Below are positions 2,972 to 64,000 of a stretch of 64,000 nucleotides of DNA, one piece after another. Origin of the DNA: Pseudomonadota bacterium (GTDB lineage: Bacteria; Campylobacterota; Campylobacteria; Campylobacterales; Sulfurimonadaceae); assembly GCA_043797085.1 (NCBI GenBank), contig JAZDQA010000004.1, positions 75,005 through 139,004 on the forward strand, written 5' to 3'. How positions within the stretch are numbered: position 1 is the first letter of the stretch; every line of letters begins with the position of its first letter. The position numbers were made by a program, and so were the translations under genes. The notes under the pieces were generated by a model. The model did not search any database. It worked only from the letters and a program-made list of their open reading frames with translations, and was not told where the DNA came from.

Positions 2972-3776
2972 TATCGTTTGCGTCTTCAATGATTCGTTGA
3001 TCTTGTGCTCGTTTTAAAATAGCACCTTGTTCTAAATCATGCGGTGTTTTACCGATACGATCCCATCGCACTTTATAATCATCGTCGATACTAAAATAGA
3101 CAAACCACGGCGTCCCCTCGATAAGCCCGTATGGGACTGCTCCCCAAAAACGGCTGTCATTGGAATGGTCACGGTTGTCTCCCATCATAAAGTATTCGCC
3201 ATCAGGAACGACAATGGGCGCTGTGTTAAATATTTCTGCAGGATAGATACCGTTATCGATGATATGATCATCGTGATGAATTCCCTCATGCTCTAGGGTA
3301 TAAGGATCTTTTACCCAGAGTTTTCCGTCTACATCTACCAATTCATAGTTAGCAAACATTTTTCGTGTGTATTCATTACCTTCATGCGGATGCAGATAAA
3401 GAACTTTATCCACTAAAAACAGCTCATCGCCCGGCAACCCGACACATCGCTTGACGTAATGCATTTTCGTATCATTCGGATAGCGAAAAATAACAATGTC
3501 ACCACGCTGTGGAGTGTCACCATCTAAAATATGTCCATCCGTTCCGGGAATAAGGGGGATTTCGAGAAAAGGGATGTGAGGCGTAGAAATCCCATAGGCA
3601 AACTTTTTCGCAAACAGATGATCGCCGATTAGGAGTGAGTCTTTCATGGAGCCGCTAGGAATTTTAAATGCCTGCGCAATAAAAAAGATGATAAACAGTA
3701 CGATAATAATCGTCCCTGTCCATGAATTGGAAAACTTATAGGCACTGCGTAGGCCATTCATTGCTTTTGTCTTCAT
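2958..3776 (-). CDS. lepB: signal peptidase I
   Basis: IPSGSM catalytic Ser, YVKRCVG catalytic Lys, GDNRDHSNDSRFWG. Confidence 0.96.
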   Translation of the reverse strand: MKTKAMNGLRSAYKFSNSWTGTIIIVLFIIFFIAQAFKIPSGSMKDSLLIGDHLFAKKFAYGISTPHIPFLEIPLIPGTDGHILDGDTPQRGDIVIFRYPNDTKMHYVKRCVGLPGDELFLVDKVLYLHPHEGNEYTRKMFANYELVDVDGKLWVKDPYTLEHEGIHHDDHIIDNGIYPAEIFNTAPIVVPDGEYFMMGDNRDHSNDSRFWGAVPYGLIEGTPWFVYFSIDDDYKVRWDRIGKTPHDLEQGAILKRAQDQRIIEDANDNELY

Positions 3777-4631
3777 TTAAACTTCTTCTCCATGGTTTTT
3801 TGCTGCTTTTAGAGTATTTGAGAGGAGCATCGCGATAGTCATCGGTCCAACTCCGCCCGGCACTGGCGTGATATACGATGTTTTTGGGGCAACCGCGTCG
3901 AAATCAACATCTCCCACCAAGCGACCATCTTCTGCTCGGTTAATTCCGATGTCAACCACTACACATCCTTCGCTTACCATATCTTCACGTATAAGATTGA
4001 TTACACCGGCACCCACAAAAAGCATATCTGCTCTAAGAGTATGTGAGCGTAAATCTTTGGTATGGATATGGGTAATTGTCACGGTTGCATTGGCATTAAG
4101 AAGTAGTGCCGCCATGGGTTTACCGACAATATTGGACGCACCGACGATTACGGCATTTTTCCCTTTAGGATCTATGTTGTATTCACTCAAAAGCTCCATG
4201 ACTCCTAATGGTGTACAGGGGACAAAACCATCTAATCCTGTTGCCAAACGCCCTACATTAAAAGGGTGAAAACCGTCAACATCTTTAGATGGGGTAACGA
4301 CTTCAAGAATCTTGGTGGTATCAATATGGGCAGGTAGGGGAAGCTGGATTAAAATACCATCAATGTTTGGGTTTTGGTTCATCATTTCAATGGTTTTAAT
4401 GATAGCTTCTTGGGAAATATCATCCGGCATTTCATGCGTAACGGAGTAAAATCCTGCACGATCACACGCTTTTTTCTTCATCCCTACATACGCTTGACTT
4501 GCGGGATCATGACCGACGAGAATAACCGCTAAGCCCGGAACGCGTCCTGTTGTTTTTTTGAACTCTTTGGCTTCGAATGAAACCTTTTCTTCGATTTTTT
4601 TGGCGAGGGTTTTACCGTCAAGTAGTTGCAT
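3777..4631 (-). CDS. folD: bifunctional methylenetetrahydrofolate dehydrogenase/cyclohydrolase
   Basis: YVGMKKKAC, KDVDGFHP, PCTPLG, TPVPGGVGPMT. Confidence 0.97.
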   Translation of the reverse strand: MQLLDGKTLAKKIEEKVSFEAKEFKKTTGRVPGLAVILVGHDPASQAYVGMKKKACDRAGFYSVTHEMPDDISQEAIIKTIEMMNQNPNIDGILIQLPLPAHIDTTKILEVVTPSKDVDGFHPFNVGRLATGLDGFVPCTPLGVMELLSEYNIDPKGKNAVIVGASNIVGKPMAALLLNANATVTITHIHTKDLRSHTLRADMLFVGAGVINLIREDMVSEGCVVVDIGINRAEDGRLVGDVDFDAVAPKTSYITPVPGGVGPMTIAMLLSNTLKAAKNHGEEV

Positions 4632-60533: not shown

Positions 60534-60902
60534 ATGCCATTTACTCCACAGCAGCGTCTAATAATCAAAGAATCGAGTGAAATTTATCGTCAGGAGATAG
60601 AGCATATCAATGATTTAATTGATAAAGAGTCTGATAATGATCGATGTGACCAACTCTATTTACTTCGTGCGCTCTCTACTATTGAACATGGAAACCGTAT
60701 CGGATTGTTCACGAATGAAGAGGGAAGTGAAGAGTTTTTTGAAGCAATGGCAAAGGAAGTAAACCTCTATTTCCCGCATAAAAATGATTCAGAGCTGTTT
60801 GATGATATCACTGTTTTAGAAGAATATGTGAAAAAAAGCTTCTTTGACAACCCTGCAAAAGAAAAAGATATTCTATTAAAGCTGTTAGGGATATCCCTAT
60901 AG
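60534..60902 (+). CDS. hypothetical acidic helical protein
   Basis: 122-aa ORF with AAGGA SD; no recognised motif. Confidence 0.65.
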   Translation: MPFTPQQRLIIKESSEIYRQEIEHINDLIDKESDNDRCDQLYLLRALSTIEHGNRIGLFTNEEGSEEFFEAMAKEVNLYFPHKNDSELFDDITVLEEYVKKSFFDNPAKEKDILLKLLGISL

Positions 60903-60905
60903 CTT

Positions 60906-62591
60906 TTAAATGGCAGAAATTTTATATCTAGAAAGTTCTCTTCCTTTGGTATCGATCACATGAACCGCACACGCCAAACATGGATCAAACGAATGAATCA
61001 CCCGTAATACTTCCAACGGACGTTGGGCATCTGCGAGCTTTATTCCGATAAGCGATTCTTCATACACACCTCGCTGTCCCATAGCATCTCGCGGTGATGC
61101 ATTCCATGTCGTTGGTGCTACGACTTGATAGTTCGCGACTTTTGCATCTTCAATTCGTACAAAATGACCCAAGACACCTCTGGGAACTTCAAAAATCCCT
61201 GCACCTTTGGATACACTTGGCAAGGCTTCAAAAACATACTTTGTCCATGTTTCTTCATCATAATATTTGATGTTTTCGATTAAATCGCTCATAAAATCAA
61301 AAAGATAATCGCAGCATATCTGCGCTTCGACGGCACGCGCCGCATTGCGTCCGATGGTTGTCGAAAAATCGATCAGAGTCATTCCCGTATCTTTCATAAA
61401 ACGATCCATATAGGGTTTAATCACTTTAGAGTTTTTCACCACGCCCACGATCATGCGAGCAACAGGACCTACTTCCATCACTTTTCCGCCATAGCGAGGA
61501 GCTTTTACCCAGCTATATTTCCCCTCACTTTTGAGCGTTCCATCCTCATTCAAATCGGTATAAAACGGGACACTCTCTTGATCGTATGGCGAGCTTGGAA
61601 GAGCATCTTCATACCAAGATCGGGATGCTTCTTCTGTGATTTTAGACGGATCAAAAGGTTCTATCGCATCAAAGTAATGCCCTGTAACGACACCACTTTC
61701 AAAAAGCTGTTCTTTTGAAGCAAATTGATACCCGCCGCAGCACATAAAGTTTCCGCTTCCGCGCCCTTCACCCATTTTGATCGATTCTTCGTATGCTTTT
61801 ACCATCATCTTCATGTCAGGTATATACGCACGCTCCAAGAAATCACGCGTCTCTTTGATCAGAAACATAAAATCATTGAGCCGTTGAGGGTTGAGCATGT
61901 CCACAACACTGGTAACGCCTCCAACAACTAGATTTTGAGGGTGCGGAGTTTTTCCGGCGAAAATAGCGATGGCTTTGGAAATGTCATGCTGAATCCGAAG
62001 CGCTTCGAGATAATGGTTCATATGGACCAAATTTTCTTCAGGAGTCAGCCGATAGCTCTCATGTCCCCAATAACCATTAGCAAAGAGTCCTAACCGCCCT
62101 GCTTTGACGAAACTGTTCAGCTTCTCTTTGACGCTTTCCAAATGCCCCTCAGAGTTTCGATAAGGGCGTTCGTGATACTGTTGTGCACTCTTGACCGCTT
62201 TAGAACAATCCGCCGTTAAGGCACTCGTAATATCCACAAAATCAAGTGAATGAAGATGATAATAGTGAATAATATGATCTTGGACAAAAAGAGAAAGAGA
62301 GACAAGATTACGGACAATCTCGGCATTTTGAGGTATCGTAAGCCCATAGGCATCCTCAACAGCACTGATTGAGGCACGGTAATGAACGTTAGTACAAACA
62401 CCGCAAATACGCTGCGCGATAAGCCCTGCATCTCTTGGATCACGTCCTTGTAGAATAATCTCTATACCGCGAAACAGCTGTCCGGATGCCCATGCATCGG
62501 TAACAATATTTTCATCATTCACTTCTACTTCTATACGTAAATGCCCTTCAATACGAGTGATAGGATCGATAACGATTTTACGGTTACTCAT
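60906..62591 (-). CDS. [NiFe]-hydrogenase large subunit (group 1-like)
   Basis: IDPITRIEGHL, L1 RICGVC, L2 DPCLACAVH plus cleavable C-terminal tail; start at ATG 62591. Confidence 0.95.
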   Translation of the reverse strand: MSNRKIVIDPITRIEGHLRIEVEVNDENIVTDAWASGQLFRGIEIILQGRDPRDAGLIAQRICGVCTNVHYRASISAVEDAYGLTIPQNAEIVRNLVSLSLFVQDHIIHYYHLHSLDFVDITSALTADCSKAVKSAQQYHERPYRNSEGHLESVKEKLNSFVKAGRLGLFANGYWGHESYRLTPEENLVHMNHYLEALRIQHDISKAIAIFAGKTPHPQNLVVGGVTSVVDMLNPQRLNDFMFLIKETRDFLERAYIPDMKMMVKAYEESIKMGEGRGSGNFMCCGGYQFASKEQLFESGVVTGHYFDAIEPFDPSKITEEASRSWYEDALPSSPYDQESVPFYTDLNEDGTLKSEGKYSWVKAPRYGGKVMEVGPVARMIVGVVKNSKVIKPYMDRFMKDTGMTLIDFSTTIGRNAARAVEAQICCDYLFDFMSDLIENIKYYDEETWTKYVFEALPSVSKGAGIFEVPRGVLGHFVRIEDAKVANYQVVAPTTWNASPRDAMGQRGVYEESLIGIKLADAQRPLEVLRVIHSFDPCLACAVHVIDTKGRELSRYKISAI

Positions 62592-64000
62592 GCGGTTCCT
62601 TTGGAAGTGGTCGATTATTGGCATATTCGTCAAACGCGATCTTACCCGCACCGCAGGCAAAACATCCATGACCTGCTTGTACCGGCCAGCTAGTTCCCTC
62701 ATTAAACTTTACTTGTGGGCAGTTCATTTGGGCATACGGTCCTTTGCATCCCATTTGAAACAAACACCACCCTTTTTTTGCCCCTTCATCCCCCCATTCG
62801 AGGACAAACTCACCCAAATCAAAATGTCCGCGCCGTTCGCAGTTATCATGAACTAAAAAACCATACGCCCACTCAGGACGATTTTTGGCATCCAGTTTTG
62901 GAAATTCGTCAAACATCATAAAATGAAGCAATGTTCCTACAATATTGATTGGATTAACCGGACATCCGGGGAGATTGATAATGTCTTTTCGCCCCAGTGC
63001 TTCTGAAACTCCAACAGCACCGGTCGGATTAGGTGCGGCAGCTACGACACCGCCATCATACGCACACGATCCCACGGCGATGACAGCTGCCGCATCTTTT
63101 GCAACACGTTGAAGCAGTGCATGTCCTGTTTCCCCTTTTGGACCGATACGTAAATATTTTCCATCCAGACCAAGCGGTACTGCTCCCTCGACAATCAAGA
63201 TGTATTTACCTTTGTCATATTTGATAATATTATCAAGCACGTTTTCCGATTCTTCACCCGATCCAGCCATTAGTAGCTCATGGTAATCAAGCGAAATGTA
63301 TTTAAGAATCAAATCATCGATTTTCGGATGAGATGATTTGATAAACCCTTCTGAATTTCCACTGCAATCAGAGAGTTCCAACCAGATGATAGGGATTTTA
63401 TTGAGCTGCGCAACCCCCTCTTTCACCACCTCTTCGAAATCAGGATGCAAATGCATCGTCGCCGTAATCATCGAAACCCATTGGTTATATTCTCGGCTCA
63501 TATCAAAAGAAGCGATTGCTTCTTCAAGATTTTCGGCACTGAGCTGATTTTTAGGATGGATGGTATTGTATTTATTGATCCGTGCACGAACACGTTCCAG
63601 CTCCGCTTCTTTAAGCTTATTTTCTCGTTCCTCTCTAAGTCGTACAGCTTCTTCATGATTTACTGGCGTAGCCGCGATCAAAGCAGAAATATCTTGCTTG
63701 CAACGACCGCATACACGACCTGCATTGGTATACGGTTTAAGTTCGATAAATGAAGTAATAGCATTGAGCTTGATAATTTCAATGAGATCTTCTTCATAAG
63801 CACTCTCACAACTGCAAACCAAACGACCCTTTGTGCTATTGAGACGATTTGAGTAAAAGTACGCCGGATCAATTGTCTCATTTTTTTCCATTAATTTCTT
63901 GAGATGGATCAAATCAATATTGGTATTAATACCGATAAAGCGCTGGAGGTGATCATGATTGATGATGTATTGATCGATTCGATTTTTATGGGTGATGAGG
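62584..64000 (-). CDS. [NiFe]-hydrogenase small subunit fused to an N-terminal BFD-like [2Fe-2S] domain (5' end beyond window)
   Basis: VCSC...CGRC BFD motif, then WLELSDCSGNSE, EGAV, GSCA, PGCP, HDNC, CL, GCKGP, GHGCFAC. The frame has no stop from 63912 to the window edge. Confidence 0.9.
   Translation of the reverse strand, partial: LITHKNRIDQYIINHDHLQRFIGINTNIDLIHLKKLMEKNETIDPAYFYSNRLNSTKGRLVCSCESAYEEDLIEIIKLNAITSFIELKPYTNAGRVCGRCKQDISALIAATPVNHEEAVRLREERENKLKEAELERVRARINKYNTIHPKNQLSAENLEEAIASFDMSREYNQWVSMITATMHLHPDFEEVVKEGVAQLNKIPIIWLELSDCSGNSEGFIKSSHPKIDDLILKYISLDYHELLMAGSGEESENVLDNIIKYDKGKYILIVEGAVPLGLDGKYLRIGPKGETGHALLQRVAKDAAAVIAVGSCAYDGGVVAAAPNPTGAVGVSEALGRKDIINLPGCPVNPINIVGTLLHFMMFDEFPKLDAKNRPEWAYGFLVHDNCERRGHFDLGEFVLEWGDEGAKKGWCLFQMGCKGPYAQMNCPQVKFNEGTSWPVQAGHGCFACGAGKIAFDEYANNRPLPKEPHE

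Follow-up and report, generated by a model that had tools for sequence, protein, structure and literature searches.

A two-gene [NiFe]-hydrogenase locus was analysed at the end of a 64,000-nucleotide stretch of DNA from a Sulfuricurvum bacterium (source genome G000, contig C4, 75005-139004); this whole stretch is referred to as the window. One gene encodes the large subunit, and in the other a hydrogenase small subunit is fused behind a flavoprotein and a BFD [2Fe-2S] domain. The small-subunit frame, 62584..63999 on the minus strand, is open at the window edge, and its remainder was read on the flanking contig stretch C4:135500-153000 (L002; window position = L002 position + 60495). There the frame extends 1010 nt farther to an ATG preceded by AAGGA and forms a single 808-aa open reading frame (L002:2089-4515, minus strand). 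An earlier reading, made from the letters of the window alone (the sequence-only reading), had seen the frame open to the window edge and had proposed a cytoplasmic enzyme with a group-1-like core whose small subunit carries a NirB-type FAD/NAD(P)H-BFD module; the complete frame, domain searches and conservation in many genomes support this. The features of the pair within the window are as follows.

62584..64000, minus strand: fused small-subunit gene, in-window part, residues 338-808 and the stop codon (the frame runs on beyond the window to G000:C4:140014)
63823..63999, minus strand: C-terminal part of the flavoprotein, NirB/ferredoxin-reductase type, residues 338-396 (Pfam, NCBIfam, NirB alignment and fold match)
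63673..63822, minus strand: BFD-like [2Fe-2S] domain, residues 397-446, with C399-x-C401 and C434-x2-C437 (PF04324, 1e-8)
63391..63672, minus strand: linker, residues 447-540, a charged helix (452-484) followed by a fossil twin-arginine translocation (Tat) signal peptide
63478..63498, minus strand: degenerate twin-arginine motif S505-R-E-Y-N-Q-W511, whose counterpart in HydA is RREFMKW
63355..63366, minus strand: proximal-cluster motif C549-S-G-N552, with Asn for the second Cys (alignments, 60 homologues, locus table)
62587..63390, minus strand: [NiFe] small-subunit part of the fused protein (alignment to E. coli Hyd-2 HybO and other PDB small subunits)
62584..62591, minus strand: overlap ATGAGTAA of the small-subunit stop and the large-subunit start, with AAGGAA just upstream
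60906..62591, minus strand: large subunit, 561 aa (MSNRKIV...), matching PF00374 at 2.9e-198 over the full model

Through the overlap ATGAGTAA, the small- and large-subunit genes are translationally coupled.

Domain structure and cofactor sites of the fused hydrogenase

Four parts follow one another in the 808-aa protein: a Pyr_redox_2 FAD/NAD(P)H flavoprotein, a BFD [2Fe-2S] domain, a linker of ~90 residues and the [NiFe] small subunit. Pfam placed Pyr_redox_2 at residues 1-269 (6.8e-36) and Fer2_BFD at 397-446 (1e-8), and in the C-terminal half Oxidored_q6 at 549-696 and NiFe_hyd_SSU_C at 716-788. Among the NCBIfam models, a hydrogenase small-subunit model matches residues 505-788, and full-length ferredoxin or rubredoxin reductases of the HcaD/NorW type match residues 2-381. 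Residues 3-451 align to positions 1-471 of the NirB model (TIGR02374), with a score of 136 bits that lies far under its 578-bit cut-off. The charged linker, the BFD motif and the NirB/rubredoxin-reductase-type FAD part that had been recognised from the window are all present, as is every other element named or foreseen in the sequence-only reading.

Residues 1-300, with the Rossmann folds for FAD and NAD(P)H, fall outside the window edge. In pairwise alignment, residues 1-447 are colinear with residues 4-472 of E. coli NirB at 24% identity, the segment YDRIHLC standing against YDRVHLS, and all four BFD cysteines pair with those of the first BFD domain of NirB. The order of FAD Rossmann fold, NAD(P)H Rossmann fold, C-terminal domain and BFD [2Fe-2S] domain is that of the N-terminal half of NirB/NasB, and YDRxHL is shared. 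In contrast to these enzymes, the second BFD and the siroheme/[4Fe-4S] domain are missing (no NIR_SIR match), and the C-terminal half is a hydrogenase small subunit. Invariance of residues was judged across 60 fused homologues. G7, G8, G9 and A12 of the FAD motif GGGxxA, G140, G142 and P143 of the nucleotide motif G140-x-G142, R166 and the BFD cysteines C399, C401, C434 and C437 are all invariant. The sequence-only reading would have been refuted by an upstream extension that lacked GxGxxG motifs or carried a Tat signal; both Rossmann motifs are present and invariant, and this refutation does not apply. The AlphaFold2 model, built on the same 60 homologues, is confident for residues 1-447 (predicted local distance difference test, pLDDT, about 85-95). 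When this part was submitted to Foldseek, the NADH:[2Fe-2S]-ferredoxin reductases putidaredoxin reductase, TodA and BphA4 were returned with target-normalised TM-scores of 0.80-0.84.

The end of the nucleotide beta-2 strand reads A165-R166-K167, with [AVS]-R-[KGN] in relatives and Glu-Phe in E. coli NirB, so that the Glu of NirB is replaced by Ala-Arg. This segment aligns with residues 175-177 of BphA4, and in the PDB search the BphA4 E175A/T176R/Q177G chain (A-R-G) outscores the wild type (E-T-Q). Such mutants were reportedly made to switch BphA4 from NADH to NADPH. Because A-R-K aligns with the positions of the A-R-G mutant, and given the purpose ascribed to it, the motif, where NADH-specific relatives have Glu, suggests NADP+ or dual specificity. 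Two cysteines of the flavoprotein, C45 and C284 (L002 about 4381-4383 and 3664-3666, outside the window), are also invariant in the 60 fused homologues. C45 takes the place of Ser in the PYDRxxLS motif of NirB (the last Ser of YDRVHLS) and of ferredoxin reductases. C284 lies within an R-V-K-E-C segment, where ferredoxin reductases carry an R-x-E-S/H motif near the flavin.

In the small-subunit part, 11 of the 12 Fe-S ligands of E. coli HybO are present, and the second proximal Cys is replaced by Asn. The ligands named as kept are C549, C649 and C683; H721, C724, C749 and C755; and C764, C783 and C786. All retained ligands are invariant in the homologues. The sequence C-[ST]-G-N is found in 79/79 fused proteins. 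The replacement of C-x-x-C by C-x-G-N is not peculiar to the fused enzyme, as all three [NiFe] small subunits of the source genome have it: CSGN in the fused protein, CAGN in the membrane HydA and CNGN in the group-2 enzyme. The other two genes lie on contig C7 (G000:C7; L008 3897-4781 and 6954-8192). In related loci, HydA of the 412-aa type reads CAGN and HydA of the 381-aa type reads canonical CTGC. Since the fused protein terminates 14 residues past the last hydrogenase motif, there is no C-terminal membrane anchor, as had been noted from the window.

The large subunit retains its Ni-Fe ligand motifs intact, RICGVC in L1 (QRICGVCTNVH) and DPCLACAVH in L2, and has a 17-residue C-terminal extension for endopeptidase processing. 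All of its best PDB matches are group 1 enzymes: DvMF (485 bits), Allochromatium vinosum (A. vinosum, 466), Hyd-1 (456) and Hyd-2 (446). Over the whole range, group 1 scored 485-417 bits, Huc (group 2a) 194 and group 3 (SH chain 5xf9) about 90. Assignment to group 1 is indicated by these bit scores, and the subgroup label 1b is taken from the description of the XCL-2 orthologue (PMC4744846). Identity with the group 2d "cytoplasmic hydrogenase" of Sulfurimonas/Aquifex was considered and rejected, because the large subunit matches group 1 at 485 bits and group 2a at 194, and because the genome has another pair, of group-2 type (294 + 435 aa), on contig C7. Groups 3d (HoxFUYH, SH of Cupriavidus/Hydrogenophilus) and 3b (sulfhydrogenase) share the cytoplasmic location predicted for the fused enzyme and the net reaction of H2 with NAD(P)+ proposed for it. 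They differ in having a group-3 large subunit and a separate diaphorase, of the HoxFU type with NuoF/NuoE-like FMN subunits or of the GltD type, whereas here an FAD-containing Pyr_redox_2-BFD unit is fused to the small subunit. The likeness to groups 3b and 3d looks like convergent function and not membership.

Linker and origin of the fusion

The linker begins with the long helix 452-484 in the AlphaFold2 model, after which residues 494-536 are of low confidence. Searched alone, it matches the pre-sequence of the Tat-exported HydA of the source genome (E 9e-9, 33% identity over 67 aa). The homologous blocks are RVRARINKYNTIHPKNQLS...DMSREYNQWVSMITATMHLHPDF in the fused protein and RCEARLNELRANTPANRLD...GIDRREFMKWASATTAMLMLPPMF in HydA. 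Twin-arginine motifs were caught by pattern in 81 tabulated loci; the arginine pair is kept in every genuine HydA motif caught and in none of the fused-protein motifs caught. The linker sequence itself is conserved among fused homologues. The linker, homologous to the Tat pre-sequence of HydA but without the twin arginine, is a fossil Tat signal peptide. The N-terminal twin-arginine signal that is a feature of group 1 is accordingly found only as an internal motif, SREYNQW. The earlier statement that there is no Tat signal holds for a working signal, but a degenerate internal relic is present.

One close relative among known enzymes is the membrane-bound, Tat-exported uptake hydrogenase HydABC (group 1b, Wolinella-type) of Campylobacterota, of which the source genome has its own copy (G000:C7; L008 6954-10681). 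The two enzymes are alike in sequence (47-49% identity in both subunits; 47% between the large subunit and the genome's own HydB), in the Fe-S ligand set including C-x-G-N, and in the C-terminal extension of the large subunit. Unlike HydABC, the fused enzyme has lost the twin arginine, carries the signal peptide internally, and has neither the C-terminal anchor nor the cytochrome b. It also adds an N-terminal flavoprotein-BFD module of ~450 aa and is predicted to be cytoplasmic, not periplasmic. Evidently, to judge from the linker, the ancestor of the cytoplasmic enzyme was an exported protein of the HydA type that captured an N-terminal domain. A NirB-like electron-input module, consisting of FAD, a pyridine-nucleotide Rossmann fold and one BFD [2Fe-2S] domain, would have been fused before the signal peptide of the small subunit. 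The twin arginine would then have decayed, and the former signal peptide would now form part of the ~90-residue linker. The enzyme would stay in the cytoplasm because the module capped the signal peptide and the twin arginine decayed.

Distribution, published record and genomic surroundings

A word-indexed protein search returned 707 proteins, of which the best 120 come from Sulfuricurvum and other Campylobacterota, nearly all of them 807-835 aa long and sharing one domain string. HMMER on representatives of 50%-identity clusters gave essentially one more full-length cluster, the rest being fragments or ordinary small subunits, and the fused family is therefore compact. In a pattern scan with each species represented by a single genome, 247 species have a relative, and locus comparisons use the best 80 of these. 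These 80 include Sulfuricurvum, Sulfurovum, Sulfurimonadaceae, Hydrogenimonas and the gammaproteobacteria Thiomicrorhabdus and Hydrogenovibrio. In the 80 loci the fused small subunit and the large subunit are neighbours wherever both were called. Within the sampled genomes, the full-length fusion is present in 83/151 of the source family and in 30/34 of the source genus. Mis-binning probably accounts for one contig labelled "Candidatus Izemoplasmatales" (L079, CAZCSO010000027.1): its fused hydrogenase, TetR/group-2 pair and HydAB are arranged as in Sulfuricurvum, and in the tree it falls with Sulfuricurvum sp. MLSB.

The sequence-only reading had implied that this architecture was new, and in this respect it has to be corrected. 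The architecture and the H2:NAD(H) hypothesis have been known since 2006 (PMC1635747), and a 2016 paper added Sulfuricurvum kujiense (PMC4744846). Scott et al. (2006; PMC1635747) described the small subunit of Thiomicrospira crunogena XCL-2 (Tcr_2037/Tcr_2038) as a hydrogenase with a pyridine-nucleotide-disulphide-oxidoreductase domain with FAD and NADH sites, lacking a twin-arginine leader and probably cytoplasmic, and independently drew the H2:NAD(H) inference. Hansen & Perner (2016; PMC4744846) reported 813 aa for the XCL-2 small subunit, placed it in group 1b, found the same gene in S. kujiense, called the Fe-S sites "not conserved" and proposed horizontal transfer. The retention of 11 of 12 ligands softens the statement on the Fe-S sites (PMC4744846). 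In the literature search no biochemical characterisation was found, and the BFD domain and the Tat relic were unmentioned; the papers on the XCL-2 and SP-41 enzyme are likewise silent on the A-R-K nucleotide motif. Added here are the BFD bridge, the fossil Tat linker, the NADPH-leaning motif, the Fe-S ligand retention, the prevalence in family and genus, and the group-4 synteny in relatives that is given below.

The published enzyme, "Cluster I" of Hydrogenovibrio (Thiomicrospira) crunogenus XCL-2/SP-41, resembles the present one in its small subunit of ~810 aa with an N-terminal FAD/NAD(P)H domain, in the lack of Tat signal and cytochrome b, and in its group-1-type large subunit, which carries the published label 1b. 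Identity over residues 1-808 is 60-62% to Hydrogenovibrio sp. 3SP14C1 and Thiomicrorhabdus (L086, L083, L077). Orthology was established through Hydrogenovibrio/Thiomicrorhabdus loci whose operon matches the published XCL-2 order, XCL-2 itself being compared by description. In the tree of large subunits, the gammaproteobacterial sequences are nested within the Campylobacterota fused clade, which fits the horizontal transfer proposed previously (PMC4744846). The base of this tree is an unresolved polytomy with the HydB clade. An attempt to demonstrate a single origin of the fusion by rooting the tree was dropped, as the sole outgroup (group 2) is too distant.

In gammaproteobacteria the pair sits inside an operon with the order hypBCDEA-S-L-hycI-hypF, whereas in the source genome it stands alone as two genes, with a response-regulator gene divergently upstream and the maturation genes on another contig. 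That contig, C7, contains a TetR gene, the group-2-type pair, HydABC with cytochrome b, a HypF-like gene, HypF and two HycI-type proteases, and HypB, C, D, E and A lie farther along it. Maturation is available because HypABCDEF and the two HycI-type proteases are all encoded on contig C7; the second HycI-type protease plausibly serves the fused enzyme. The two tandem HycI-type endopeptidase genes equal in number the group-1-type large subunits of the source genome. The HypF-like gene before the full HypF encodes a 640-aa paralogue with one HypF zinc finger and without acylphosphatase or Sua5 domain (HypF-like and tandem HycI regions: L008 10844-12766 and 15217-16337, G000:C7). A gene for a 197-aa pentapeptide-repeat protein is located between the group-2 large subunit and hydA (L008 6211-6804, G000:C7). 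In many Sulfuricurvum, the TetR/group-2/HydAB block is found downstream of the fused pair.

Close upstream of the fused gene, and on its strand, ~24 Campylobacterota loci have a six-gene Ech/Hyf-like group-4 cluster. In most of them the two are immediate neighbours, and in a few one other gene stands between the cluster and the fused hydrogenase (listed loci: L017, L020, L022, L025, L026, L028, L030-L034, L036, L037, L040, L042, L045, L061, L062, L064, L082). The cluster encodes NuoL-, NuoH-, NuoB- and NuoC-like proteins, a 361-aa NuoD-like large subunit and a 2x[4Fe-4S] protein, and it is absent from the source genome. This synteny fits a joint function of turning H2 into reductant. An ATP-citrate-lyase marker in the source genome makes a reductive tricarboxylic acid (rTCA) cycle likely in this organism. 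A link of the enzyme to this cycle is plausible; it is unspecific, because Calvin-cycle gammaproteobacteria also carry the enzyme.

Downstream of the large subunit, two further features lie within the window.

60886..60899, no strand assigned: palindromic hairpin TAGGGATATCCCTA between the large-subunit stop and the convergent frame
60534-60902, plus strand: convergent acidic open reading frame of 122 aa without a Pfam match, sharing the hairpin with the large subunit

The hairpin TAGGGATATCCCTA is likely a two-way terminator for the large-subunit gene and the convergent frame. The latter is kept only in the closest relatives (cluster c49 in L009). In agreement with the sequence-only reading, the gene next to the large subunit is convergent, and no cytochrome b gene is found beside the pair in the source genome, nor directly after the fused pair in the 80 related loci. 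A promoter scan gave sites no more frequent than in shuffled sequence. On the other side of the pair, outside the window, tRNA-Glu(ttc) is followed by an integrative element that ends beside gltX (L002 5568-10979 = G000:C4:141067-146478). The element contains an HTH_17 excisionase-like gene, genes of 437 aa and 295 aa without a Pfam match, a DndB-like gene and a phage-type integrase. With this integrase element across tRNA-Glu from the hydrogenase pair, an origin of the pair as cargo of a mobile island was considered, and no support for it was obtained.

Function of the enzyme and competing explanations

The pair may be regarded, with somewhat better than even confidence, as a two-subunit cytoplasmic H2:NAD(P)+ [NiFe]-hydrogenase that descends from group 1b HydAB of Campylobacterota, a Tat-exported and quinone-linked type. 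In such an enzyme, the Ni-Fe site of the large subunit would split H2. Electrons would then pass from the proximal cluster (3 Cys + Asn) through the medial (3 Cys) to the distal cluster (His + 3 Cys), and from there through the BFD [2Fe-2S] cluster and FAD to NAD(P)+, with the input half of NirB working in reverse. Its role would be to meet the NAD(P)H demand of CO2 fixation and biosynthesis straight from H2, without recourse to reverse electron transport. Sequence evidence shows the architecture, the cofactor-binding residues, their conservation, the origin of the linker and the presence of maturation genes; electron-flow direction, preferred nucleotide, location and physiological role are inferred. 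A bolder version can be offered only tentatively. It holds that the enzyme is an active, NADP+-preferring soluble hydrogenase and a third independent route from H2 to pyridine nucleotide beside 3b/3d, made from HydA and a NirB-like module. Paired in many Campylobacterota with an adjacent Ech-type group-4 enzyme, it would provide NADPH and reduced ferredoxin for the rTCA cycle without reverse electron transport.

Several points weigh against an H2:NAD(P)+ enzyme. This activity has been published for no member of the family (PMC4744846, PMC6501319). T. crunogena XCL-2, which has this hydrogenase only, showed no H2 consumption and no soluble or membrane activity (PMC4744846, PMC6501319). The soluble fraction of Sulfurimonas denitrificans was also without H2-uptake activity, but the enzyme there is of group 2 (PMC4149538). 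The AlphaFold2 model, with its linker and small-subunit half of low confidence, left the flavoprotein unplaced relative to the distal cluster, and with it the distance of electron transfer. Additionally, the leaning toward NADPH derives from one motif together with the purpose ascribed to the BphA4 mutants.

If the enzyme worked in the opposite direction, it would oxidise NAD(P)H, evolve H2 and act as a redox valve that relieves an excess of reductant once electron acceptors run out, for example during the breakdown of storage carbon. Group 1 cores are reversible in vitro, which would permit such a direction. The valve was proposed as an alternative for XCL-2 by Scott et al. (PMC1635747), and XCL-2 takes up no H2 (PMC4744846). 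It is nevertheless an unlikely explanation. Unless the H2 pressure is very low, forming H2 from NAD(P)H is an uphill reaction (E0' -320 vs -414 mV), the carriers are mostly H2-oxidising chemolithoautotrophs of H2-containing habitats, and the gene is often found among uptake-hydrogenase and hyp genes.

About as improbable as the valve is a different acceptor for the flavin, either membrane quinone at the inner face or sulfur, disulfide, persulfide or oxygen species, with the NAD(P) site being secondary or regulatory. The Pyr_redox_2 superfamily does span NDH-2, SQR, CoA-disulfide/CoA-persulfide reductases and NADH oxidases, and weaker matches to these were obtained. The invariance of C45 and C284 in the fused family, with C45 where NirB and ferredoxin reductases have Ser, hints at such an acceptor, and H2-uptake activity was observed in membranes of some Hydrogenovibrio strains (PMC4744846). 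However, in sequence as in fold the protein comes closest to NADH:ferredoxin reductases and NirB rather than to NDH-2, SQR or CoADR, and the 60 fused homologues all keep the NAD(P) Rossmann motif and R166. The C-terminus shows no evident amphipathic segment for membrane anchoring. The membrane activity of SP-41 is explained by a second, group 1d hydrogenase equipped with Tat signal and cytochrome b, to which Gonnella et al. (2019; PMC6501319) allow it to be ascribed.

It is very improbable that the enzyme is a catalytically unimportant relic or an H2 sensor. The inactivity of XCL-2 (PMC4744846), the poor Fe-S site conservation suggested by Hansen & Perner and the response-regulator gene divergently upstream in the source genome can be cited for it. 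Opposed to them are the invariance of 11/12 Fe-S ligands and of all active-site motifs, and the presence of a full-length gene in more than half of the sampled family genomes (the 83/151 given above). The C-terminal extension of the large subunit is typical of catalytic enzymes and unusual in regulatory hydrogenases. Moreover, the response regulator adjoins the fused pair only in the closest relatives, and the source genome already has a group-2-type enzyme beside a TetR gene. Finally, an assembly or gene-calling artefact joining a flavoprotein gene to a small-subunit gene, a doubt that the sequence-only reading had itself raised, has a negligible probability and is refuted: no evidence supporting it was found, hundreds of independent assemblies share the uninterrupted ~808-aa frame, some of them complete chromosomes (Sulfurovum sp. 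CS9, for example), and the linker itself is conserved.

The fossil Tat signal provides a clear example of an exported enzyme re-localised by domain capture. In metagenomic surveys, these genes, which occur in more than half of the sampled Sulfurimonadaceae genomes, should not be counted as ordinary periplasmic "group 1b respiratory" enzymes. If active, the H2:NAD(P)+ enzyme would be a minimal two-polypeptide hydrogenase in which a group 1 core couples H2 directly to NAD(P)H, and it could possibly serve as a compact catalyst for H2-driven NADPH regeneration. Activity of this kind would also explain how biosynthetic reductant is obtained without reverse electron flow in H2-oxidising Campylobacterota and in some vent gammaproteobacteria.

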